Source: a virus
IMG/VR virus record: IMGVR_UViG_3300045988_130119
Coordinates: 21,023-85,022 of that record
DNA length: 64,000 bases
Strand: one strand, 5' to 3'
This document shows positions 1,780 to 53,362 of the stretch, piece by piece. Every line of letters begins with the position of its first letter. Position 1 is the stretch's first letter. A program made the translations under genes and the position numbers. The notes below the pieces were generated by a model. That model was given only the letters and a program-made list of their open reading frames with translations. It was not told the origin of the DNA and did not search any database.

Positions 1780-2385
1780 TTAAAAATTACTTGTTTTTAC
1801 TCTACAAATACGTTCACATTTGGCGTAAATTTTGCCGTTTTGTTTGTTGGAATACTTTTTTACTAACTCTTTAATTTTCTCGCTAATATCTTCCTTATTT
1901 ACGTCAATTTCATAAGCATATATACACGTTTCATCGTTACATGCTTCTTTCATAACTTTAATAAGATCTACGATTTCTGTCTCTATTTCTTTCTTATCGT
2001 GCTCTTTCTTCAACTGTTTGAGGACTTCAACAACTCGTTCAGGGTATTTTTTCGAAAATTCACCGCAGGAAATATCTTCACCATTATTATCTCTACTGAA
2101 CTTGCATTCAGAACAGGGAATATTTTCACACATTTCATACTTAAGTCTAATTGCCCCTTCTGCTGTCAGTTCGTCTAATAGTTCGCACTCTGATTCAAGA
2201 CCAATTCTCCAAACATGTTTATCGCCACAATCTACGTTAAAACCGTCTTTGTAACAAGTAAGACCATCTGTAGAAGGTTTATTAGTAACAATACCAATTT
2301 TCCCCTCTGCTCCACGACAACCATCAGTTGTTATAACAATTTTAATTTTATCTCCAACTTTATACTTCATAATCCTCTTCTCCAA
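1780..2385 (-). CDS. hypothetical Cys-rich protein
   Basis: ORF track; N-terminus YKVGDKIKI resembles N-terminus of 51342..52211 product. Confidence 0.4.
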   Translation of the reverse strand: MEKRIMKYKVGDKIKIVITTDGCRGAEGKIGIVTNKPSTDGLTCYKDGFNVDCGDKHVWRIGLESECELLDELTAEGAIRLKYEMCENIPCSECKFSRDNNGEDISCGEFSKKYPERVVEVLKQLKKEHDKKEIETEIVDLIKVMKEACNDETCIYAYEIDVNKEDISEKIKELVKKYSNKQNGKIYAKCERICRVKTSNF

Positions 2386-2414
2386 TCTTCATTTAGTTGC
2401 AACATTATAGATCA

Positions 2415-2618
2415 TCAATCATAATCATAATCTCCTAACTCAACTTCCTTATCACATAAAGGGCAATTACAATACGCCCCATCGCCCCAATAATCCGTTT
2501 TGAAGTCTACATCTGAAAACGGAATCGTCACATCACTAAAACAATGAGGACACGTAAACTCAACTTCGGCAGGTTTACTTATAATTGTGTAATCTATTGG
2601 ATTATTTTCATCAATCAT
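2415..2618 (-). CDS. zinc-ribbon protein
   Basis: CPHC...CNCPLC motifs. Confidence 0.35.
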   Translation of the reverse strand: MIDENNPIDYTIISKPAEVEFTCPHCFSDVTIPFSDVDFKTDYWGDGAYCNCPLCDKEVELGDYDYD

Positions 2619-2621
2619 TTT

Positions 2622-3077
2622 TCACCCCATCAATTCAAATCTATACTTCTGTTTCACATTTGGATATTTTTCATGATCAACCTTGCTAACAAACATCCCG
2701 TAAGGTCTACTCCAAATAGTTCCGTCCTGACATTTATAAACCACATAAAACTGTCCTGGTGATTCTGTATCTTGTGCGATATGCAAAACCCTAACTATAT
2801 GTCCTTTAAAATGTCTGTAGACTTGTCCTGCAACAACATTTCTATCATTGTCTACTGGGACTTTTTTCTTGAAATATTTCTCGCAATCTGCAAGGTCACA
2901 TTTATCATTTAGAAGAGGATGGTTTTTTCTCCAATCTTTGATTTCTTGCACTTCTGCATGTTCATGTCGAGGTTCAAGTCCTCCCCATCCGTTAAAGATT
3001 AACGAATCCATGTTTTCCAATGTATAATCATCATCTACATCTACAAAATATCCGCTGATTTTAAATATCTTCGCCAT
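2622..3077 (-). CDS. hypothetical protein
   Basis: ORF track, AGGAGGA SD. Confidence 0.4.
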   Translation of the reverse strand: MAKIFKISGYFVDVDDDYTLENMDSLIFNGWGGLEPRHEHAEVQEIKDWRKNHPLLNDKCDLADCEKYFKKKVPVDNDRNVVAGQVYRHFKGHIVRVLHIAQDTESPGQFYVVYKCQDGTIWSRPYGMFVSKVDHEKYPNVKQKYRFELMG

Positions 3078-8657: not shown

Positions 8658-11003
8658 TTATTCTCCTTTTGTTTTTAATCTATAAGCGTTTTTAAGTAAC
8701 ATATCTTTTAAAAATGTTTGTTTTGTTTTCACTTCTTTTGTGCGAATTGCTTTTGAAATAGCATAATTATTTCCAACTAACACACAGTATTTTTTTGCTC
8801 TAGTAATCGCTGTATATAAAAGTTCAGAATTATTCATAATATAACTTCCAGTGTCCATTCCCACAATTGTAGATGTGAATCCAGATCCTTGCATTTTATG
8901 GACAGTACATGCATACGCAAGTTCCAAATTTTTTGACTCAGCTTTACTAAAAACAACTTCTCCTATTCCAACAAAATCTATCGTACAATATCCATTATCT
9001 TCAATTTCTTTTACTATTCCGATGTTTCCATTGAATACAGGTGTCGTATCACCATCAGAATTTGTACATTTATAATTATTTTTTGTATTTAATACCTTAT
9101 CTCCAACTCGTATTACATATTTTTTCGCTTCATCATTTTTCTTTTCTAAGAAGATTTCTATCTCATTTTCTTTATTAAATTTTGGATTATATAAATTTTG
9201 AATTTTTGTGTTAAGATTATAACAAGAAAGTTCCCCTTTTAATCTCATAGGAACGCATACTTGAACTTCCATGATGTTATTAAATTTATCCATTTCTGTT
9301 TGAAAATGTCTAATTATACAATCAGCCATTGATTCTTTAGAATTAAAAATATCCAATTCCATATCTTTAAGTTCTCCAAGAATTGTATTTCCTTCAAATT
9401 TATTTCCAAAAATTTGTTCTTGATTTGCAACTTTTATCGACGTTGGTATAATACCACTCATCAATGCCTGTCTATGTGGTTTCGTTAATTTTACAACAGG
9501 TAGTACATCACTATCCAAAATGTCAGCAAACACTTGACAATTTCCTATAGGAGTTAACTGTTGAACATCTCCCATAATAATTACTTTTGCACCAATTGGA
9601 ATTGCTTCTAATAATGACAGAAATAATGCTCCATTTATCATTGTTGCTTCGTCTATCAATACGATATCAACAGCTAACTTGTTTTCTTTATTATATGTAA
9701 ATTCACCATTTTGATATCCTAAAGCCCTGTGTATGGTACTTGCTGGTAATCCAGTTGCTTCGGTAATTCTAACGCTCGCTTTACCAGATAATGCGCATGC
9801 TAAAATACTATAATTGTCATATAATGAGCAAATTCCGTTAGCAGTGCTGGTTTTTCCGGCTCCGGCTAAACCAGTCAATGTCATAACATTGTTTTCTAAG
9901 CTTAATTTGATTGCAGCTCTTTGTTCATCTGTAAAATCAAATCCCTGATTTTCCTCTACATTTTTTATTATTTTTTCCCAATTAGAGATATTAAATGATT
10001 TAGGTATATAATCCTTATGAAGATCTTCGATATTTTCAGAATTATTTTCTACTATTTTTATATTTCCAATCTGCAATCTCAAAAGTTCTTCCATAATTCT
10101 ATTCTCTAAATTATAGAATTTTCTCAAAGCTATTTTAGATCCGTCATCGATTACAACAACATCCTCATTATCAATCATCTGTTTTGCTGTAATATTTATT
10201 ACTTCTTCTGGTACAAATCCTAAAGCATCGTATAAAGCTTTCATCAATTCTTGATAAAACAAATAGCTCTTACCGGCTTCTCCTTGTTCATTCAAATGAT
10301 GTAATAAAAATCCTTTTATACGTTTTGGATCATATTGTCCTATTCCGACTTTACATGCAACCTCATCGGCTTTTTTAAATCCTACTCCATCCACTCTAAC
10401 CAAATCATATGGATTATTTCTAACAACATCTATTACTGTATCAGGAGAATGATAAAAATCTACAAGCTTTTTTATAAATGTATGTGTTAATCCCAATTGT
10501 CCAAGTTCCATATAAATAGAGCTATAATCTTTAGATTCTTCATATTCATCTATTAATCGCAACGCCACTTGATTGCCTATACCTTTGATTTTCATAAGTG
10601 ATTTAATATCTCTATTCTCTAAAAGTTGAATAACATCATCATATTGATCAAATAATTTATCGACAATATTTTCATTCAAGACATTTTTTAAGAATTCTTT
10701 TTGCTTATCCTTGCTTGAAATATCAATACATTTACTAATATATAGAAGTTCATATGTATCTCCATATTGTTCATGTGTCTCTGCTAATTTACAGAAAATT
10801 TTATATGTTGTCCCAAATTCTAAGCTACAGCAAGTTCCTTTTAATTTTATCGTATAAACATTATCAATTTTATTTTCTAACCATTTTGTTACAGTTACAC
10901 TAAAGATAGCAAATTCACCGGAATCAACTTTTTTACAATACTTTGGATAGTAAATTCTATCCAAAGCACATTCAAATTTTAAAACTCTTTCTTCCATCAA
11001 CAC
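8658..11003 (-). CDS. RecD-like SF1 DNA helicase with HhH region
   Basis: Walker A GLAGAGKTS, Walker B VLIDEATM, SF1 C-terminal motifs (TVHKMQGSGF, YTAITRAKK); HhH IKGIGNQVALRLID. Confidence 0.7.
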   Translation of the reverse strand: MLMEERVLKFECALDRIYYPKYCKKVDSGEFAIFSVTVTKWLENKIDNVYTIKLKGTCCSLEFGTTYKIFCKLAETHEQYGDTYELLYISKCIDISSKDKQKEFLKNVLNENIVDKLFDQYDDVIQLLENRDIKSLMKIKGIGNQVALRLIDEYEESKDYSSIYMELGQLGLTHTFIKKLVDFYHSPDTVIDVVRNNPYDLVRVDGVGFKKADEVACKVGIGQYDPKRIKGFLLHHLNEQGEAGKSYLFYQELMKALYDALGFVPEEVINITAKQMIDNEDVVVIDDGSKIALRKFYNLENRIMEELLRLQIGNIKIVENNSENIEDLHKDYIPKSFNISNWEKIIKNVEENQGFDFTDEQRAAIKLSLENNVMTLTGLAGAGKTSTANGICSLYDNYSILACALSGKASVRITEATGLPASTIHRALGYQNGEFTYNKENKLAVDIVLIDEATMINGALFLSLLEAIPIGAKVIIMGDVQQLTPIGNCQVFADILDSDVLPVVKLTKPHRQALMSGIIPTSIKVANQEQIFGNKFEGNTILGELKDMELDIFNSKESMADCIIRHFQTEMDKFNNIMEVQVCVPMRLKGELSCYNLNTKIQNLYNPKFNKENEIEIFLEKKNDEAKKYVIRVGDKVLNTKNNYKCTNSDGDTTPVFNGNIGIVKEIEDNGYCTIDFVGIGEVVFSKAESKNLELAYACTVHKMQGSGFTSTIVGMDTGSYIMNNSELLYTAITRAKKYCVLVGNNYAISKAIRTKEVKTKQTFLKDMLLKNAYRLKTKGE

Positions 11004-13438
11004 ACCTCACTATCTGTTATTAATGAATTTCCTTTTCCAAATTTTCTATACACTATATCATACTGAGTTATAACATCATATTCTTTATCTATGTCAGCAG
11101 CTATGATGTTTTTCCCTTCGTCATCTTTTCCAATTATCTTTTTTCCAAATTCTTTTTCTGAATTTATAACATCGATGATATCTCCATCTTGAAGAGGTAA
11201 TATTTTAAAAATTTCTTTTTTTACTTTTCTATATTGAATTTTTCCTGTTCCAATATCATAAAGTATTAAATTTGGAGCAATTACATTTCTAGTATTTAAT
11301 ACAAAATATCTATTAGAATATTCTCTATTTACATATCTAACTGTATTAAACTTTTCTACTTGCATTTTCATAATGTCATATTCATCTATATGTTCATTAG
11401 GAATAATATTAAAAATCTCCAATAAAGTTTTTTTAAAATTCAAATTGTTATATGACTTTCCAGTTTTTGATAATTCTGAATTTGATATTACAATTCTTTT
11501 AATATTTTCATCTGAAATTTTTTTCTCAAGTGTTTTTACGGTCATTTTGTCTTTTCCGTATAGAATTAAAAAATAATCTCTAAATATTAATAATTTTTTT
11601 GTTTTTCCGTAACTTGAGCAACAATCTGCAATTAAATATTGCTCTAAAATTTTTTTCGTTATTTTATTTTCTGTACAATATTCAAGAAAATCATAAAATG
11701 TATCACTCTTACACATACAATCAAATAAAATATCAGGCGTATTGTCTATTTTTTCTTCGTCTTTTGTAAGAAACATTTCGATTCTTTTATTTGCTTCTTT
11801 TATGTAATATTCTTTATCCAATACATACGGAATAGATTTTTCATGTATATCTTCATTATCTATAAACAGGTGTTTTGGTGTATTCGCAAACTGTTCATAA
11901 GATTTGTTTCCCTTTTCTATCTTTAATTTGTAAATTGATCCATTTGAATCATTTTTACTTGCAAAAACTCTATGAACTTTTCCTTTTAATAATTCTCCGT
12001 CAATTGATGATATCTTTCCATCTTTAGCTGCAATTCCATTTCCATACCAAATTTCTTTGTATTTCGCAGATAATTTAATAACCTTCTGGAATTTTATATA
12101 TTCATTACATTCGTTAATGGTTTTTTCAACAGGTATACCAAATGCTAAATAATTTCTAACAGCATCGTTTAAAATAGATAAATCATTGTCTATTGGTTTG
12201 TTAAATTTTACCATTGCACCTTTGCACTCTAATTTTCCATTCTTCATTACTGCTATGTAATTATTCACATCTTTTTGAATTAATTTTGTATATTCATCAA
12301 TTTCAAATTCCATTTTCAATCTCTTACCTACAGCATTTGTAATTTCTATGACTTTATTTTTCATATCTTCATTTTCGCAAAGAACGAAAATACCATCTGT
12401 ATTAGTCTGCAATAATCTACAATATGGTTCTAATTTATCTATTAGATCCAGAATGAACATTTGTCCAAATATACAAGTTAAATTTGCCATAAGTGGATCG
12501 TATGATGGATTATTTCTATCCTTTCCTGCTCCATATACACCGTTTATCATTGGCTTTAAAGCTTTGTTTTTTGAATTTCCTTCAGCTTTAAGTTTTAATC
12601 TAAAATTTCTCATCTGTTTAAAGTCGTCTGGATTTTTAAATTTTCTACTCAATAATCCATATTCAATATCTGTTGTTGGATACATTGACGCTACATCTGC
12701 ATGAAGAATAATTCCTTCAAATATAGCTTGTTTATCGTCTGCTCCATGACATCCACCCCATGCAAAAACATGTGGAATACCGGCTACCACACAACATAAC
12801 TGATTATTATGTTGTACATATTCTGAACGTAAATGTTCTTTATATCTCCAATTTTTAGGATTGAGGTACCATTCAGGAATAAATTTATATTTATCTGATA
12901 ATTGGATTGTTTCTGGAAGACGAATGTCAAATTCATCATCGAGAGTATGCTGATTTACAGCATTGAGAATTTTAGGAGAAACTGCTAATTGTACTTTTGT
13001 TTTTGTAAAATAAGACATATCAAGACCATATAATTCAATAATGTCTAACTGACCTTCAAAATCATCCCAACATTGGTCTAAAACACGAAGCACCTCAATT
13101 ACGTCATGTCTGTTATAGTATAGCGTTTGTTTAATCTCTTCTTCTGTAAGAGATCTATCTATATTAAAATCTACTTCTGTTTCACGAATGTCGTCGCCCA
13201 TGAATGCTTCTAATTGTTTAAGAGATTTATCTTTAAGAATAGTATCGTAATCATTTAAAGGATATTTCTTTGCATTTTTCACAACTTGGAAAGGTTTTTT
13301 GCCTTCTTTGATTAATTTATCATTAACATATCCTACGTTCATTCCATCAAGTATTCCTTTGAAAATTCCAGTATCATATTGTCTACCGTTGTAAGAAATG
13401 AAAATATCATCTTTATGTTCATTATAAAAATCTGTCAA
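10997..13438 (-). CDS. family-B DNA polymerase (true N-terminus probably upstream of annotated start)
   Basis: Exo II YNGRQYD, motif A ADVASMYPT, motif B KPMINGVYG, motif C NTDGIF; Exo I DFE lies in the same frame upstream of first canonical start. Confidence 0.75.
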   Translation of the reverse strand: MTDFYNEHKDDIFISYNGRQYDTGIFKGILDGMNVGYVNDKLIKEGKKPFQVVKNAKKYPLNDYDTILKDKSLKQLEAFMGDDIRETEVDFNIDRSLTEEEIKQTLYYNRHDVIEVLRVLDQCWDDFEGQLDIIELYGLDMSYFTKTKVQLAVSPKILNAVNQHTLDDEFDIRLPETIQLSDKYKFIPEWYLNPKNWRYKEHLRSEYVQHNNQLCCVVAGIPHVFAWGGCHGADDKQAIFEGIILHADVASMYPTTDIEYGLLSRKFKNPDDFKQMRNFRLKLKAEGNSKNKALKPMINGVYGAGKDRNNPSYDPLMANLTCIFGQMFILDLIDKLEPYCRLLQTNTDGIFVLCENEDMKNKVIEITNAVGKRLKMEFEIDEYTKLIQKDVNNYIAVMKNGKLECKGAMVKFNKPIDNDLSILNDAVRNYLAFGIPVEKTINECNEYIKFQKVIKLSAKYKEIWYGNGIAAKDGKISSIDGELLKGKVHRVFASKNDSNGSIYKLKIEKGNKSYEQFANTPKHLFIDNEDIHEKSIPYVLDKEYYIKEANKRIEMFLTKDEEKIDNTPDILFDCMCKSDTFYDFLEYCTENKITKKILEQYLIADCCSSYGKTKKLLIFRDYFLILYGKDKMTVKTLEKKISDENIKRIVISNSELSKTGKSYNNLNFKKTLLEIFNIIPNEHIDEYDIMKMQVEKFNTVRYVNREYSNRYFVLNTRNVIAPNLILYDIGTGKIQYRKVKKEIFKILPLQDGDIIDVINSEKEFGKKIIGKDDEGKNIIAADIDKEYDVITQYDIVYRKFGKGNSLITDSEVC

Positions 13439-13580
13439 TTTTTGTTTATCATTTACGATTACTATTTCTTTTGTTCTATCTTCGTAATTTATAAATGTAA
13501 CACAAAACCAATTTATTTTAGAATATACTTCGAAATCATATCCGAAAATTTTACTTTTATCTATTATTTAGACCACCGCC

Positions 13581-15341
13581 TTATCCAAAGAATCCTTGTA
13601 CTTTATCGCTTTTATAAAACATCCAATCGTCAATTAACACTTGAGCAGCTTTTCCAGATTTATAATCAATAGAAAATCTCCCAATTACATCAAATTCAAA
13701 ATTTTCTCCTATAGAAATTATTTCTTTATATAATGAAGCTAATGAACTTCCTTTTGTTTGTTTTACAAATTTTATATTGTGATATACGAACTCGATTTTG
13801 TTCTGTTTAGATCCAAGAAGATATAAATTGTATTTATTACATGGAATATTTCTTATTAAAAAGATAGGTTCGCTCACTGAGTTTCCCCATACGAAATCAT
13901 ATTTAGCAACATTTTTAATAATCTGATCATGAATTTGATTTGAATCATACACGTTATATACGTGATATGTAGGTTCATCAATTTTTTTCATTGTTGAAAG
14001 TAAAGAAAATAATTTATTCGTGTTTTCATATCTTATTTCGCATCCAAACGCACCAGAATGTCCCTCAACCTTATCGAATAAATTTGTATCTTTACACCAC
14101 TGATTAAAGTCTAATATTTCACATTTATCACTACCTCTACCGCTTCCTTTACATACATTCCCTTTTCGTCTCATTAATAAACACGGTCTTTGATATTGAT
14201 CAGCAAGTCTATTTGCAATTAATCCAGTAGAATTACTATCAACGTCATCTCTTGCGTTACATACAAGAATTGGAAATTTATCCAAACCATATTTTTTTAC
14301 TTCTTCCGATAAAACGGCTGCACTTTCTTCGGTTAATTTTTTTTGTTTTCTGTTAGAAGACTGACATGCTTTGAGAACATATTCTTGAATGGTCATGTTT
14401 ACCATTCCTTTCCCTCTAACTTTTCTATCGAGCATTTTATCTGAATTACACAATGCTTCGAACATATAACATTTATCTTCATATTCTCCAAGACGAATCA
14501 TCGAATTAATCAACGGACATACATAAAATCCAATGCCATTGATAGTAATTTTGTTATTCAAAGAATACATTTGTGCATTTACTAAAACACTAATCAATTT
14601 ATTTTTATTGATTCTATTTCTTATTTGTTCCAACCCTTTTAAAATGTAATACCTTGTTTGTAAATTAGTTACATCCGCTCTATCTCCTATCATTCCCAAT
14701 GCAACCAAATCCAAGTAATCATCTGCATAATTCACTTTATAATAATCATCTAAAATTTTCGTAAATTTATATGTAATTCCAACACCTGTCATTGCTTTAT
14801 CGGTTATTTGATCAGAATATTGATTATTAACAACAATTGCCGGATTATTTGGAATTACCCCTTCTTTATCTCTAATATTATGATGATCTAGAATAATCAC
14901 ATCTTTTCCAAGTTTAATTAGTTTTTCACATTCTTTCGAATCACCAGATCCTGCGTCCGGAATAATCACTAATTTGGAATCATCTTCACACATGCTTTCT
15001 ATAAATTCTGATAAACCATGTGCTTTTCCTTTATGAATAAGGCATCTTATTTCAATGTTAGGATTAATTCTTTTTATATATTGATACATAAGCGATGCGG
15101 ATGTATTACCATCCACATCACAATCGACTAATAAATCAATAATATCTTCGTTTGATATGTGTTTTATCAGTATATTTTTTGCTTCATTAATATTATCGAA
15201 AAGAAGTTCACTCTCCGTATTTTTTAATGTTGGATTCAGAAAGGAGTCTGTGTCGTCAATTCCTTTTAATTTTAAAATATCTTCTAACTCATTTCCAAAT
15301 CTCACATGACCAAGTACATCATATTTAAAACTCAAATTCAT
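13581..15341 (-). CDS. DHH-family phosphoesterase, RecJ-like exonuclease
   Basis: DCDVDG, IPDAGSGD, ILDHHN (DHH), EGHSGAFG (DHHA1 GGH) motifs. Confidence 0.7.
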   Translation of the reverse strand: MNLSFKYDVLGHVRFGNELEDILKLKGIDDTDSFLNPTLKNTESELLFDNINEAKNILIKHISNEDIIDLLVDCDVDGNTSASLMYQYIKRINPNIEIRCLIHKGKAHGLSEFIESMCEDDSKLVIIPDAGSGDSKECEKLIKLGKDVIILDHHNIRDKEGVIPNNPAIVVNNQYSDQITDKAMTGVGITYKFTKILDDYYKVNYADDYLDLVALGMIGDRADVTNLQTRYYILKGLEQIRNRINKNKLISVLVNAQMYSLNNKITINGIGFYVCPLINSMIRLGEYEDKCYMFEALCNSDKMLDRKVRGKGMVNMTIQEYVLKACQSSNRKQKKLTEESAAVLSEEVKKYGLDKFPILVCNARDDVDSNSTGLIANRLADQYQRPCLLMRRKGNVCKGSGRGSDKCEILDFNQWCKDTNLFDKVEGHSGAFGCEIRYENTNKLFSLLSTMKKIDEPTYHVYNVYDSNQIHDQIIKNVAKYDFVWGNSVSEPIFLIRNIPCNKYNLYLLGSKQNKIEFVYHNIKFVKQTKGSSLASLYKEIISIGENFEFDVIGRFSIDYKSGKAAQVLIDDWMFYKSDKVQGFFG

Positions 15342-20844: not shown

Positions 20845-21156
20845 TTAATCCTTGATTTGTTGAGAACAAGTTCTCATTTTATAAGCAAAATGTCTTTCTA
20901 TAAAATTATCGCAATCATAACTAAATATAGCACAAGACAAATGGTGATCGTCATATAACAATTCTTCTATTTTACGATTCGCTTGAATGCTATTCCCAGT
21001 CATTTGTTTTGAATTGAAACGTATTGCTTTTCCGTCATATTCTTCAAATGCATTACAATATGTATCCCAATCTTCTACTTCTATAATTCTTGATTGATGA
21101 TCATAAATTCTATTGTCATTATCGACAAGTAGGTTCGTTTCGATTACTTCTACCAT
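20845..21156 (-). CDS. hypothetical protein, paralog of 24363..24638
   Basis: Shared ETNL.D...DHQSR...DW..YC.A...YDG..I.F.SK...IEEL.YD.HHL blocks. Confidence 0.4.
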   Translation of the reverse strand: MVEVIETNLLVDNDNRIYDHQSRIIEVEDWDTYCNAFEEYDGKAIRFNSKQMTGNSIQANRKIEELLYDDHHLSCAIFSYDCDNFIERHFAYKMRTCSQQIKD

Positions 21157-26262: not shown

Positions 26263-26352
26263 GTGCTCATTCTCCTTATAATTACATTTATTACACTTTA
26301 CTACTGAATTTATAAGCCCTCATTTGAAAGTGTGAAAGTCAGCCCAGGCTGA

Positions 26353-26422
26353 TAAGTTATACGCGAATCGAACGTGTTTCTTCCTATTTATATAGGATAT
26401 TCTACCAATGAACTAATAACTT
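26353..26422 (-). tRNA. tRNA-like gene with non-canonical anticodon arm (6-bp stem TCCTAT/ATAGGA, 4-nt loop)
   Basis: Perfect 7-bp acceptor AAGTTAT/ATAACTT, D-arm GTTC-ATTGGTA-GAAT, T-arm ACACG-TTCGATT-CGCGT; no 5-bp/7-nt anticodon arm. Confidence 0.45.
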
Positions 26423-26472
26423 ACTAACACGTTTTGTGAAAGAAAGAAGGTGCAATTATTTTCTGCGTCAAG

Positions 26473-26556
26473 TTGACTGTACAGGACTCGAACCTGTGCC
26501 TCTCCATATGTGCGCTTTTCATATGTACGCTCTCCCAATTGTTGAGCTAACAGTCA
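26473..26556 (-). tRNA. tRNA-like gene, 84 nt, anticodon position occupied by CATATG stem with 9-nt loop AAAAGCGCA
   Basis: Perfect acceptor TGACTGT/ACAGTCA, U8A9, D-arm GCTC-AACAATTGGGA-GAGC, T-arm ACAGG-TTCGAGT-CCTGT; exhaustive search finds no canonical anticodon arm. Confidence 0.45.
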
Positions 26557-26700
26557 AACCAGTATGATAAAGAATTCTCTGTTGTTGAATTGTGTACTTT
26601 AATTCAGCAAATGCAAGCGTTGGAGCTTATGTTTATTTTTCTTTTACAACTTCTTGCATAAATCTCTATTTTTGCTCAAGAAATAGTTCTTTCAGAGAAA

Positions 26701-26757
26701 GGATGGATGGTGGATTCGAACCACCTTTATAAGATTCATTATCTTGAAGGTGCATCC
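26701..26757 (-). tRNA. tRNA 3'-half fragment (T-arm plus acceptor strand), 5' half degenerate
   Basis: GGTGG-TTCGAAT-CCACC followed by ATCCATC; only about 33 nt of poorly pairing sequence upstream. Confidence 0.3.
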
Positions 26758-26851
26758 TCTTAATAACTTCACTTACAACCACAGCGTTCCTATTCATACT
26801 AGAATTTGTCATGCACAACAAAATTCGTTCCGTTGCTGTCATCCACCAAAA

Positions 26852-26936
26852 CACGGACTCTCGGAGTTGAACCGAGTTTAAACCTTGTTATGGCTTACGA
26901 TTTAATCGTAGCTCTTACCAGTTGAGCTAAGTCCGT
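26852..26936 (-). tRNA. tRNA-like gene, 85 nt, extra 13-nt hairpin (ACGAT-TAA-ATCGT) inserted between D-arm and anticodon arm; putative anticodon AAC
   Basis: Perfect acceptor ACGGACT/AGTCCGT, D-arm GCTC-AACTGGTAA-GAGC, anticodon-like arm AAGCC-ATAACAA-GGTTT, T-arm CTCGG-TTCAACT-CCGAG. Confidence 0.45.
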
Positions 26937-27088
26937 AAATATCTATACAAACTACTTTCACTCGTATGAGTATATTAGTTATGGTAATATATTCTCTCAC
27001 CGACAGCTACCTCTGTTTTTCATCTGTATAGAAAAGCTACTAATGATATTAAGCATCCATAACATCTTAACTGACCACTTTCACTGAA

Positions 27089-27159
27089 CTAGGGATAGGA
27101 GAATCGGACTCCTATTCTGAGAATCAAAATCTCATGTGTTACCATTACACTAATCCCCA
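27089..27159 (-). tRNA. tRNA-Gln (anticodon TTG)
   Basis: Canonical cloverleaf: acceptor TGGGGAT/ATCCCTA, D-arm GTGT-AATGGTA-ACAC, anticodon arm TGAGA-TTTTGAT-TCTCA, T-arm AGGAG-TCCGATT-CTCCT; 71 nt, no encoded CCA. Confidence 0.75.
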
Positions 27160-27437
27160 TTGGATTTCCACAATGACCTTTCATAACATTGTGGCAATTT
27201 GAGCGATTTCCATTTCTGTTTCATAAGAATTTTTCAGCATTTCATTCTTTACTTACTTTTTTCACTCAAAAACATATATCTTTTCAGTTTATGAGCTATC
27301 TTATAACGGTACTATGTCTAGGTCTACTCCAGAATCTTGTACTTCGATTCCTTTTATTTTACGTTCATTTAAGGCTTTTGTTCCAATTCTAATTATTGCT
27401 CACCATACAGGCTGAACGACAGGTTTTTACTTATAAG

Positions 27438-27508
27438 CTAGGCTGTCCAGATTCGAACTGGATCTGCAAGAGTCAAATTCTTGTTTGCTACCATTACAAC
27501 ACAGCCCA
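27438..27508 (-). tRNA. tRNA with TTG anticodon (Gln-like, second copy)
   Basis: Acceptor TGGGCTG/CAGCCTA, D-arm TTGT-AATGGTA-GCAA, anticodon arm CAAGA-ATTTGAC-TCTTG, T-arm TCCAG-TTCGAAT-CTGGA; 71 nt. Confidence 0.7.
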
Positions 27509-27892
27509 TTATTGCAACTTTTATTAGGCAAGTTGCCAACCTTATATAATTAATTCACCATTTGCCAGCTTCGCAGACAACTTACAGCCAAGTACAATCA
27601 TACTGAAAACTGTTAATCGAAGATTTTGTAAAACTTTATATCTTTACTATTTACTATTTAAACTTTACACAAAACATAAACTTTGAACTTTGAGCTTTAC
27701 TACTTGAGATTTAAGCTTTACTCTTTACAGTCATAATTTGCATTATAATAAGTAGAAAGACTTACTTTTTATGTTTTATTTATACTCAAGTTTCTTTATT
27801 GTTTTGATTCAGACTATACTTGCAAAAGTCTGAATGATTGTAGTTTTAAGTTTTCAGCAAACAGTGAAATAATTTTCTATTTATATATTCTC
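27509..27892. repeat. repeat-rich non-coding region (iteron-like direct repeats and inverted repeats)
   Basis: TTTACTATTTACTATTTA, repeated CTTTAC/CTTTGA units, IRs GCAACTT...AAGTTGC and TCAGACT...AGTCTGA. Confidence 0.4.
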
Positions 27893-45490: not shown

Positions 45491-45755
45491 CCTCCAATCC
45501 GATTAAATCCACAAACATATTTAAGCCACCAATCATTGCATTTATTTCATCACAACTACCATTCATACAAATATTACTTGCTACGTTTGACACTGCAATC
45601 CCACAATTGAAATAGAAGTTATTGTCGTGATCGCAAGCTTTTAATCTTAATTCCAAGTCTTCTATTGAAGTATCTTCGTCTCTTTTCTTACTATATGTAA
45701 TAATTCTATCTGCTTCTCGAACCATGTCTTCGTAAGACCACATAGGGCTTCCCAT
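45483..45755 (-). CDS. hypothetical protein
   Basis: ORF track. Confidence 0.35.
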   Translation of the reverse strand: MGSPMWSYEDMVREADRIITYSKKRDEDTSIEDLELRLKACDHDNNFYFNCGIAVSNVASNICMNGSCDEINAMIGGLNMFVDLIGLEDE

Positions 45756-52411: not shown

Positions 52412-53242
52412 TCAATTAGCTATTTTATTAATAGTAAAATTTTTATATATTTTTTGTACCCAATCATAAAAATCTGATTGAGACATCGTTGATTTAGCTT
52501 GATTACACCATCTGCAACATGGAACAACATTCTCTAAACTATATCCTTTAGTAGAATCTATTCTGTCAATTCCGTTATATTGGAAATTATAACCATTAAT
52601 ATTTTTTATAGATCCATGATTTATTCCACAATAAAAACATGGTTGTTTTATAATTTCTTCAAAGAAATCATTTTCTATTTCCCATTTATATCCTCTTCTT
52701 TTTGCACTAGACTTATATCTTCCCTTAATTAATGATATTGCCGTTTTTTCTTTATCTTCATTTGTACTTTGTTTTGGTCTAAAATAACGTTTCATTTTAC
52801 ATCCACAAGATCTTATCAAACCATTTTCCAATTTATAACCAACAACATGTGTTTTGTTGCCACATTCACACAAACATAACCATTTAATCTGACCATTATT
52901 TGTTCTTGTCCCATCATCTTTTATGACTGTAAGCATTCCAAATTTTTCATCAGAATAGTCTTTGTTGGTTTTCTTTATTTTTTTAGGTGCTTTTATAAAT
53001 TCACTTATTTTTGAATTTATTAGTCTATATGTAAATACCCATTCTGTTTTTTCTTTATATTCAATTAGAACTTCTGGTGAAACTCCGTTTGTTCTATAAT
53101 CAACAATGTGAAAATTTCCTTGGATGTTATCAAAAACAAAATTAACAGTATGTCCAACGCTTTCTTTCCAAGATACATTTTTATTTGGTAATTTTGGTAA
53201 ATTATCTAAATAAACTTTCCTCATTATTAGTTTTAGGAGCAT
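52412..53242 (-). CDS. HNH endonuclease
   Basis: C-terminal HNH GIDRIDSTKGYSLENVVPCCRWCNQAK; zinc CxxC...CxC upstream. Confidence 0.6.
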   Translation of the reverse strand: MLLKLIMRKVYLDNLPKLPNKNVSWKESVGHTVNFVFDNIQGNFHIVDYRTNGVSPEVLIEYKEKTEWVFTYRLINSKISEFIKAPKKIKKTNKDYSDEKFGMLTVIKDDGTRTNNGQIKWLCLCECGNKTHVVGYKLENGLIRSCGCKMKRYFRPKQSTNEDKEKTAISLIKGRYKSSAKRRGYKWEIENDFFEEIIKQPCFYCGINHGSIKNINGYNFQYNGIDRIDSTKGYSLENVVPCCRWCNQAKSTMSQSDFYDWVQKIYKNFTINKIAN

Positions 53243-53362
53243 TGCAATTTTTATCCATGGAACTCAACCTCCTTTTCTTTTATATACACTCTGAAATTTT
53301 CCAGAAAAAACCTAAATTTCAAAAGGAGACGATTAGATTTGAAGCTAACCGCCTCCAACATA

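Follow-up and report, generated by a model that had tools for sequence, protein, structure and literature searches.

Probable AUA initiation of a phage family B DNA polymerase gene behind an extended Shine-Dalgarno sequence

The infC and pcnB genes of E. coli start at AUU, and initiation at these codons is discriminated by IF3. Near-cognate starts in E. coli give 1-2% of the level obtained from AUG (bioRxiv 10.1101/063800). In S. aureus the infC, ccpN and citZ genes start at AUA, all with extended Shine-Dalgarno (SD) sequences and at about 10-30% of the AUG level; the AUA start of ccpN is also found in B. subtilis, and S. aureus cvfC1 starts at AUU (PMC13009471). Literature searches turned up no specific report of an ATA/AUA start in a phage gene. 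The gene considered here encodes the family B DNA polymerase of a gut phage, in a 64,000-nucleotide stretch of viral DNA (IMG/VR record IMGVR_UViG_3300045988_130119, positions 21,023 to 85,022; hereafter the window), and its start would add one case to a kind already known in the Bacillota. The gene resembles the Bacillota examples in its near-cognate AUA behind a strong, extended, start-proximal SD at an appropriate spacing, in the conservation of both the odd codon and the SD among relatives, and in the reduced initiation that would be expected. It differs from them in being a phage replication gene and not a host regulator, in that initiation is deduced from sequence, in the in-frame TAA that abuts the AUA, and in sharing its initiation module with a mobile endonuclease gene. 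From the E. coli AUU genes, which it resembles in a third-position near-cognate start that may keep or tune expression low, it differs in the use of AUA, in that no autoregulatory logic is evident, and in a host that is probably a member of the Bacillota, with other SD usage. The host lineage is taken from a single NCBI protein name, that of a relative's protein recorded from a Faecalibacillus intestinalis assembly, because a scan of GTDB genomes found no relative.

The polymerase gene lies on the minus strand, and its reading frame opens directly 3' of an in-frame TAA (Table 1). From 13567 the codons run ATA ATA GAT AAA AGT AAA ATT TTC GGA TAT GAT TTC GAA, the last three encoding the DFE of the Exo I motif. 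The first ATG, GTG or TTG in this frame is the TTG used by the gene caller, at codon 44, so that 43 codons without a canonical start stand ahead of it. Of the 93 window ORFs that reach 80 codons, none has a longer run of this kind, and the runner-up has 24 codons. The polymerase is also the sole ORF in the window in which a strong SD precedes an ATA, ATT or ATC and a canonical start is absent within 5 codons. The original prediction that the frame of the TTG-called ORF is open from the TAA onwards, with no ATG, GTG or TTG before Exo I, is thus borne out by the sequence, with two corrections of detail: the Exo II motif YNGRQYD is at residue 16 of the TTG-called ORF and not at residue 15, and the DFE, rightly recognized as Exo I, has its aspartate 54 residues from that of Exo II, not about 60.

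Table 1. Features at the junction of the DHH and polymerase genes (window coordinates; SD scores in kcal/mol)
Feature	Position	Strand	Remarks
DHH/RecJ-like exonuclease gene, co-transcribed with the polymerase gene	13581..15341	-	stop TAA 13583-13581
Extended SD GGCGGTGGTC	13571..13580	-	8/10 positions match the consensus GGAGGTGATC
In-frame TAA closing the frame, adjoining ATA	13568..13570	-	kept in all class-B loci
Full family B DNA polymerase ORF (proposed)	10997..13567	-	856 codons plus TGA stop; start ATA 13567
First ATA, proposed initiation codon (AUA, fMet-tRNA)	13565..13567	-	5 nt behind GGTGG
Second ATA, less likely near-cognate start	13562..13564	-	SD score -16.3; 8-nt spacer
ATT, unlikely near-cognate start	13547..13549	-	no SD (-1.5)
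Exo I, D11-F-E13 (GAT TTC GAA)	13529..13537	-	D11, E13 at least 90% conserved in 82 homologues
TTG, first canonical start and gene-caller start	13436..13438	-	no SD (-2.2)
Exo II, N60-GRQ-Y64-D65	13373..13390	-	N60, Y64 at least 90% conserved, D65 invariant in 82 homologues

By profile, motif and model comparison the polymerase is a member of a divergent family B subfamily (PHROG 1252). No match to the Pfam families DNA_pol_B or DNA_pol_B_exo1 was found at E <= 0.01 (the Pfam PF00136 record for a relative, P0121, is only 'faint'), and phmmer against the PDB gave marginal Pol epsilon matches only; the assignment was therefore made through PHROG profiles, an alignment-profile search and a modelled structure. 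The PHROG 1252 DNA polymerase profile matches residues 4-605 at 1e-123; an alignment profile found PDB entry 1s5j at 2e-10, along with many PolB, Pol alpha and Pol II chains; and the AlphaFold model of the full polymerase (pLDDT 92.6) was matched by Foldseek to the archaeal family B polymerases 9N, KOD and Tgo (E ~1e-14, probability 1.00, ~720 columns). When 82 diverse homologues are aligned, each of D11, E13, N60, Y64, D65, Y151 and D155 proves to be invariant or conserved in at least 90% of them, and the full ORF carries the DEDDy 3'-5' exonuclease motifs with the proofreading site intact. Exo III is formed by Y151 and D155 (Yx3D), polymerase motif A by D291-VASMYPT (DxxSLYPS), motif B by K338..N342..G346 (Kx3NSxYG) and motif C by N389-T390-D391, counted as a match with NTD instead of DTD. 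D11 and E13 lie in the first beta-strand of the model (residues 7-15), where pLDDT is above 90. The small PHROG 1252 polymerases of Bacillus phage BMBtp15, Paenibacillus phages LincolnB and Wanderer, and Enterococcus phages are ~40% identical over residues 6-604 and have Exo I-III and Pol A-C in common with the window protein, with Exo I 4-13 residues from the N-terminus; they differ in their ATG starts, and the window protein adds ~250 C-terminal residues (605-856). The polymerase of Staphylococcus phage PI-Sepi-HH2 (MT880871), a cultivable phage, apparently shares an ATA start, independently. When the DHH-polymerase region was compared with GenBank phages by megablast, no match was obtained.

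Substitution patterns show that the Exo I region is translated. For the 43 codons that precede the TTG, pN/pS is 0.08-0.17 (about 0.09) with pS at 0.5-0.7, indicating strong purifying selection, and among 23 junction haplotypes period-3 conservation begins exactly at the ATA at 13567, with variation confined to third positions from that codon on and unpatterned upstream of it. Three sequence features expected of a gene with an SD-directed AUA start are seen here: no ATG, GTG or TTG between the upstream in-frame stop and the conserved coding sequence; an SD that is strong or extended and normally spaced from the near-cognate codon; and codon and SD kept in relatives, or an ATG at the same codon. 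What had been noticed as an SD-like element proves to be a genuine extended SD, correctly spaced and among the strongest in the window. Its duplex with the 16S 3' end, at -17.6 kcal/mol, lies in the top 0.4% of all positions and among the three strongest at the 93 gene starts of the window, a value reached by 2 of the 93. GGTGR is conserved in every junction type, and the 5-nt spacer from GGTGR to the first ATA is the modal spacing for SDs of this type in the window. Folding of the junction RNA revealed no significant structure (z = 0.45). The sequence GGTGRNNTAAATA occurs elsewhere in the window at chance level only, and an exact second copy at 45518-45530 meets a stop after 5 codons.

Comparison with relatives points to the same codon. 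The first ATA is invariant in 21 of the 23 junction haplotypes, and the remaining two have ATG in its place: L026 reads ATG ATA GAC AAA AGT (MIDKSKIFGYDFEV), and L177, whose protein is P0121 (57% identical, same gene order), reads AGGTAGGTGAAAGT ATG CTA GAT AAG AGT (MLDKSKIWGYDFEV). A further relative, P0265, begins MIDKNKIWGYDFE, its start being the equivalent of the first ATA codon, and outgroup N-termini that start at this codon read MLDKSK.. and MIDKSK... In close relatives the SD is followed after 4-6 nt by ATA, and gene callers use an ATG or GTG inside the SD; because this architecture is the same, the whole clade probably starts at the first ATA. In relatives called from ATG, ACG or GTG the called start is nearly devoid of an SD (-3.1 to -5.5 kcal/mol), whereas the first ATA scores -13.4 to -16.6, and the called ATG is itself not conserved, being ATG, ACG, CG or GAA in different relatives. 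In L017 (TGA GTT CAA ATA ATC) the GTG is out of frame, and SD and ATA are still kept. A scan of metagenome DNA with a loose pattern gave 7 relevant stretches among at least 120.

The polymerase is most probably translated from the AUA at 13567-13565, directed by the extended SD, a reading that upholds the earlier proposal of non-canonical AUA or AUU initiation and narrows it to the first ATA. The long, start-proximal SD GGCGGUGGUC (13580-13571) would base-pair with the 16S rRNA 3' end, placing the 30S P site on the near-cognate AUA, which fMet-tRNA would read with a third-position mismatch. The product would be an 856-residue family B polymerase, (f)M-I-D-K-S-K-I-F-G-Y-D-F-E..., with its DEDDy proofreading site intact, and a lower, possibly IF3-sensitive, initiation rate would be the likely consequence. 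Counting against this choice of codon, AUA performs poorly as a start in E. coli reporters.

The DHH gene upstream (Pfam DHH 4.6e-14; PHROG 2484 RecJ-like 1.5e-132) ends ...GGA TAA in a different frame from the polymerase, exactly 13 nt before the first ATA as had been reported, and scans of the interval found no terminator and no convincing promoter. Ribosomes ending the DHH gene, or a GTG-GTC-TAA mini-ORF, might restart at the ATA with no need for a 30S subunit to load independently; reinitiation over short distances is an established process in E. coli (PMC2268962), and in the relative L013 the stop TAA of an endonuclease gene abuts the ATA. Such termination-reinitiation is nonetheless unlikely, for coupling alone would need only a far weaker SD, and the SD-ATA geometry is constant while the upstream partner varies (DHH at 13 nt, endonuclease at 0 nt). 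Coupling to the DHH gene, as suggested originally, may add to expression; as a requirement it fails, because in close relatives the frame relation to DHH varies or an endonuclease gene intervenes and the upstream partner differs. Since reinitiation would still use the ATA, it would be a refinement of the AUA start and not a replacement for it.

Initiation at the second ATA (13564) or at the ATT (13549) instead of the first ATA is rather improbable. The SD score of the second ATA is also good, and the two ATA codons are not rigorously separable; an 8-nt spacer, however, is rare in the window (2 of 22 GGTGR-type SDs), and the second ATA is not conserved, being ATC in L017 and CTA in L177. A start at the ATT would give M-F-G-Y-D-F-E, with the 4-residue lead of the commonest N-terminus in the family, M[LI]FYDFEV, but the ATT is without an SD and 23 nt from GGTGG, and the codons for D3, K4 and K6 that precede it vary mostly synonymously (GAT/GAC, AAA/AAG). 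The closest outgroups, moreover, start at the position of the first ATA.

Initiation at the in-frame GTG at 13576, followed by readthrough or recoding of the TAA at 13570-13568, is very unlikely, although several observations speak for it. In all class-B and endonuclease junctions the TAA is preceded, at a distance of 2-3 codons, by an in-frame GTG or ATG, the arrangement GTG-NNN-TAA-ATA (ATG-GTG-ATT-TAA-ATA in L025) recurring at these junctions; L017 has CAA where others have TAA; and unusual tRNAs are encoded in the window. Yet the GTG belongs to the SD and lacks an SD of its own (-3.6 kcal/mol), and outgroup proteins start at the first ATA position. The codon at 13570-13568 is non-coding, because GAT, TCA, CAA, AAC or AGT stands at the same position in other relatives. 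Only L017, which has two compensating indels, argues directly against GTG initiation with readthrough, its GTG being out of frame and a TGA preceding the ATA. Nothing suggests recoding in the window at large, because TAA, TAG and TGA all end ORFs there and are followed by an SD and ATG; in-frame stops in other conserved genes together with a cognate suppressor tRNA, as expected of recoding, were not found, and none of the tRNA genes in the window has a UUA anticodon. Two tRNA-Gln(UUG) genes are present in the window, together with an odd tRNA-like gene whose loop, UAUAAA, has 6 nt. This last gene was considered as a suppressor or AUA-reading initiator and rejected, given its 1-72 pair and lack of a GGG/CCC anticodon stem.

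A product starting at the TTG or further downstream, without Exo I and proofreading-deficient, would match the gene-caller annotation, and some family members have lost DxE, such as P0238 and P0247 (beginning MLFYKFN.. and MLFYKTL..). It too has very little probability: the TTG is without an SD, the conserved codons ahead of it keep D11 and E13 intact, and residues 7-58 are confidently modelled as the first strands of the exonuclease fold, so that truncation would be expected to break the domain and not just drop a motif. Homologues starting at the equivalent of the TTG and without Exo I, which had been named as grounds for abandoning the prediction, were not seen, starts lying 4-13 residues before DxE.

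Exactly the same junction is seen in L175, which shows no difference over 5.4 kb, and in L174, which comes from a different sample and is 96.6% identical. The class-B junction is present in 41 locus records, and the truncated gene calls fall into database clusters comprising 7 and 860 sequences, single members of which are present on 30 and 390 contigs. Because of the purifying selection, and because the same junction is found in independent, diverged assemblies, assembly error and enzyme truncation are both untenable accounts. An indel that destroyed an ordinary ATG, or a programmed frameshift fusing DHH to the polymerase, both raised originally, can be dismissed with near certainty: the junction is 1 nt shorter than in ATG-type relatives, but it recurs unchanged across independent samples and diverged strains, and the fusion fails because the DHH-polymerase frame offset varies by junction class or, in L013, L025 and L026, an endonuclease gene lies between the two, with no conserved frame relation and slippery site found.

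That gene, in the same three relatives, is a GIY-YIG/NUMOD endonuclease gene. The window itself has no endonuclease gene at the DHH-polymerase site. The endonuclease ORFs open directly after GGTG[GA]TTTAA with ATA TAY AAA ATW TAT GTY CAY (IYKIYVHINK.NGKLYIGQT); over the first ten codons they differ by synonymous changes only, and an in-frame canonical codon first appears at position 24 (L013), 106 (L025) or 10 (L026). A GIY-YIG and NUMOD gene between phage replication genes recalls the free-standing T4 seg/I-TevI-like genes; it differs from these in that the insertion lies directly after the SD-TAA-ATA of the host gene, so that the endonuclease would use that gene's start module, and in that a second SD-TAA-ATA copy at the endonuclease 3' end would serve the polymerase. 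A homing endonuclease gene would thus share the initiation module of the polymerase.

It is conceivable, though doubtful, that SD-(stop)-AUA is a conserved translational throttle of the replicative polymerase throughout an abundant clade of ~150-200 kb human-gut phages, ATG/GTG-annotated members included, which may be IF3-sensitive and tied to host physiology; that it is also a precise landing site for GIY-YIG genes, the endonuclease taking over the start codon and regenerating the module 3'; and that it arose independently in the Staphylococcus phage polymerase. A phage replication gene would in any event be added to the few genes that probably start at AUA in Bacillota-type systems, and the locus, being well conserved and having sister lineages with ATG, is a natural case in which to test how extended SDs rescue weak start codons. 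For annotation, gene callers cut the polymerase at a TTG, GTG or ATG 13-75 residues in, losing the Exo I catalytic residues and wrongly suggesting a proofreading-deficient enzyme, and the database clusters of such calls hold more than 860 sequences. As Exo I lies within ~10 residues of the N-terminus, any irregular start would give the same truncation artefact in this family. When other truncated family representatives were checked for hidden non-canonical starts the causes were mixed: a +1 shift in a T-run in L178 and L179, an in-frame TGA, probably genetic code 4, in L181, and a possible ATC or TTG start in L180.

In the frame of the family B DNA polymerase the earliest ATG, GTG or TTG is the TTG at 13438 (codon 44 counted from ATA 13567), which is the start both in a mechanical ORF list and in the public gene calls for identical proteins. 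A DFE motif does precede it in frame, as the original prediction held, and the Exo II motif YNGRQYD lies within the TTG-called ORF, at residue 16 and not at the 15 first given. The codons following the in-frame TAA (minus strand, as for all the genes concerned) read ATA ATA GAT AAA AGT AAA ATT TTC GGA TAT GAT TTC GAA GTA and onward (IIDKSKIFGYDFEV), and this 43-codon start-less stretch is the longest among the window's 93 ORFs of 80 or more codons (runner-up, 24); nearly all other genes there have an AGGAG- or GGTGA-type Shine-Dalgarno (SD) sequence and then ATG.

Features of the junction, the polymerase, its relatives and the tRNA region; polymerase residues listed are invariant or kept in at least 90% of an alignment of 82 diverse representatives
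Feature	Position	Strand	Remarks
DHH/RecJ-like gene	15341..13581	-	ends GGA TAA, stop 13583-13581
GGCGGTGGTC	13580-13571	-	directly after DHH stop
TAA	13570-13568	-	in polymerase frame
Exo I	D11, E13		
Exo II	N60, Y64, D65		
Exo III	Y151, D155		
Motif A	D291, S294, Y296, P297		
Motif B	K338, N342, G346		
Motif C	N389, T390, D391		
L026 polymerase start			AAGGAG-N10-ATG ATA GAC AAA AGT, giving MIDKSKIFGYDFEV
P0121/L177 polymerase start			AGGTAGGTGAAAGT ATG CTA GAT AAG AGT, giving MLDKSKIWGYDFEV; 57% identical
P0265 protein N-terminus			MIDKNKIWGYDFE
Endonuclease gene, L013	2115-3003		
Endonuclease gene, L025	about 2205-2981		
Endonuclease gene, L026	about 2298-3004		
tRNA-Gln(UUG) genes, two	in tRNA cluster 26351-27508	-	
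ARAGORN 'tRNA-???'	26351-26423	-	6-nt anticodon loop UAUAAA
Rfam tRNA match	26473-26556	-	insert of about 24 nt, anticodon region
tRNA-like sequence, uncalled	near 26860-26935	-	
Rfam RAGATH-27 RNA motif	27785-27868	-	78.5 bits, gathering score 76.1; just upstream of tRNA cluster

The polymerase has no match in Pfam. PHROG 1252 ("DNA polymerase") matches residues 4-605 (1e-123), tblastn matches 939 phage records with a top identity of about 40% (led by Bacillus phage BMBtp15, Paenibacillus phages LincolnB and Wanderer, and Staphylococcus phage PI-Sepi-HH2), and a HMMER search of the whole library returns 3247 relatives. The profile of the 82-sequence alignment matches solved family B polymerases (1s5j at 2e-10; KOD, 9N, Pol alpha, Pol II and Pol epsilon), and the AlphaFold model from that alignment (mean pLDDT 92.6), in which residues 7-15 (IFGYDFEVY) form the first beta-strand, finds archaeal family B polymerases in Foldseek at an E of about 1e-14 over about 720 columns. 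These matches and the conserved motifs identify the upstream DFE as the Exo I site of a DEDDy proofreading domain, the first strands of which would, on the model, be lacking from a TTG-started product. In all likelihood the polymerase is full-length and, by prediction, proofreading-capable; Exo I only seems lost through an artefact of gene calling, which affects hundreds of database entries. At the C-terminus, residues about 605-856 (10997-11755, minus strand; about 250 residues) are modelled with confidence as a helical bundle plus a beta-rich domain, a region that is missing from homologues of roughly 580 residues and from PHROG 1252 and is a separate protein in other phages (e.g. P0201, 262 aa, 60% identical to residues 592-845). 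At its stop (10997-11003, minus strand) the polymerase gene runs into the start region of the downstream RecD2-like helicase gene (8658..11003), and the replication module order DnaB-like, primase-like, DHH, PolB, RecD2-like is also found in L177, a 57%-identical outgroup.

Five converging lines of evidence support ATA 13567-13565 as the putative start: its SD, homology, a conservation boundary, relatives, and a module shared with an endonuclease. The non-canonical initiation originally offered as one option is thereby upheld and narrowed to a single codon. Scored as the predicted duplex energy of the 18 nt upstream of a codon with the 16S 3' end, the SD of this ATA reaches -17.6 kcal/mol, a value attained by only 2 of the 93 window gene starts and in the top 0.4% of all positions; the scores are -1.5 for ATT 13549, -2.2 for TTG 13438 and -3.6 kcal/mol for GTG 13576. 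Its GGTGR spacer is 5 nt, that of the next ATA (13564-13562) 8 nt, and the commonest spacer in canonical window genes with such an SD is 5-6 nt (11 of 22). Alignment of homologues, proposed earlier for placing the start, puts ATG at this exact codon in three relatives (L026, P0121/L177 and P0265), P0121/L177 sharing the window's gene order of DHH, polymerase and RecD2-like, and family-wide the distance from Met1 to the Exo I aspartate is 4-13 residues. Among 23 unique junction haplotypes all codon positions vary upstream of the ATA, the preceding codon being TAA, GAT, TCA, CAA, AAC or AGT, and from the ATA onward changes are essentially third-position only. In relatives called from ATG or GTG (...GGATAAGG ATG GTG ATT GAT ATA ATA..., with variants ACG GTG and GAA GTG) the called start sits within the SD and scores only -3.1 to -5.5 itself, against -13.4 to -16.6 for the ATA, and the ATG itself varies. 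What is invariant across the clade is the SD, a 4-6 nt spacer and ATA.

The same SD-TAA-ATA module appears to be used by a second gene, an unusual side observation: DHH and polymerase are separated by a GIY-YIG/NUMOD homing endonuclease gene in the locus records L013 (= L041, L133), L025 and L026, with no counterpart at this site in the window. Its ORF directly follows GGTG[GA]TTTAA and opens ATA TAY AAA ATW TAT GTY CAY ATW AAY AAR, encoding IYKIYVHINK.NGKLYIGQT, the GIY-YIG motif; the first ten codons differ only synonymously among the three. In frame, the earliest canonical codon comes at position 24 in L013, 106 in L025 and 10 in L026, and without that ATA start the L025 enzyme would lose its entire catalytic domain. 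At its 3' end the endonuclease gene carries the module once more (GGGGTGGTCTAA ATA in L013), and this copy serves the polymerase. The window junction, GGCGGTGG+TC+TAAATA, resembles a recombinant of both copies and so could be a scar of endonuclease loss.

Translational coupling to DHH termination, raised earlier as reinitiation, is a plausible contribution because the gap between the genes is 13 nt and no terminator or promoter was found there; as an alternative to the ATA start it fails, the start codon under coupling still being ATA, and the upstream partner of the polymerase varies among relatives. Initiation at GTG 13576 with readthrough of the TAA keeps a small probability because L017 (TGA GTT CAA ATA ATC), in which the GTG is out of frame and SD and ATA are retained, is one sequence; against it, GTG 13576 forms part of the SD, all three stop codons end genes normally throughout the window, and no UUA-anticodon tRNA was found among the window tRNAs. 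A frameshift fusing DHH to polymerase, likewise suggested at first, is contradicted by a frame relation that varies by junction class and by the endonuclease gene that can separate the two. Substitutions in codons 1-43 relative to same-junction relatives (pS 0.5-0.7, pN 0.06-0.12, pN/pS 0.08-0.17) indicate that the stretch ahead of TTG 13438 is translated. The junction is the same in L175, which matches the window exactly across 5.4 kb, and in L174 from another sample (96.6% identical), and this class B junction (...GGATAAGGCGGTGGTYTAA ATA ATA GAT...) is carried by 41 locus records of IMG/VR, JGI and ENA, including some contigs fetched twice; database clusters of such truncated calls are 7 and 860 sequences in size, with individual members found on 30 and 390 contigs. 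The recurring junction, low pN/pS and widespread truncated calls exclude a pseudogene or the indel error once entertained. Local RNA structure was also discarded, the junction fold being insignificant (z = 0.45).

AUA and AUU are established yet rare start codons in bacteria. Near-cognate starts in E. coli reporters yield 1-2% of AUG (bioRxiv 10.1101/063800). Retapamulin-assisted ribosome profiling in S. aureus gives AUA starts for infC, ccpN (where it is also kept in B. subtilis) and citZ and an AUU start for cvfC1, each with an extended, start-proximal SD, and reporters there reach about 10% of the AUG level, or 30% in rich medium (PMC13009471). The polymerase start predicted here from sequence shares this anatomy, and the host lineage is probably Bacillota, because an assembly of Faecalibacillus intestinalis is the recorded source of a relative's protein; on these grounds the polymerase would join the known class of AUA-start, extended-SD genes, agreeing with it in every sequence-level respect. 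The value of the finding lies in annotation and in offering a natural model for SD-rescued AUA initiation.

Irregular gene-call starts occur elsewhere in the family. In the homologue of Staphylococcus phage PI-Sepi-HH2 (MT880871, CDS QPB07653.1; L003 2440-2520) the annotated TTG start lies within a terminator-like hairpin and lacks an SD (-1.6); downstream come AAAGGAGCGTGATTACA and then ATA CTA TTT TAT GAT TTT GAA (SD -16.6), and this ATA, which aligns with BMBtp15 Met1 (MLFYDFEV), probably serves as a start that arose independently, here in a phage that can be cultivated. Other N-terminally truncated calls among distant homologues differ in cause. L178/L179, two low-coverage assemblies, have a +1 shift in a TTTT run immediately past the D-F codons of DFE; L181 has an in-frame TGA (MHKNF*VYDFEV), suggestive of genetic code 4; L180 reads AGGGGG TTG ATT AAC ATC ATT TTT TAT GAT, its start possibly being ATC or the tightly spaced TTG; and P0238 and P0247 have lost the DxE residues entirely.

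Elsewhere in the window, a minus-strand tRNA cluster (26351-27508) has several unusual members, and at 53180-53290 (minus strand) a strong SD (AAAGGAGG) and ATG 53258 open an ORF of only 18 codons (MDKNCNAPKTNNEESLFR*). Its frame differs from that of the long ORF 53263..52412, the start of which it overlaps and whose own ATGs lack an SD; candidate readings are a leader peptide with coupling, a frameshift and a sequence error.
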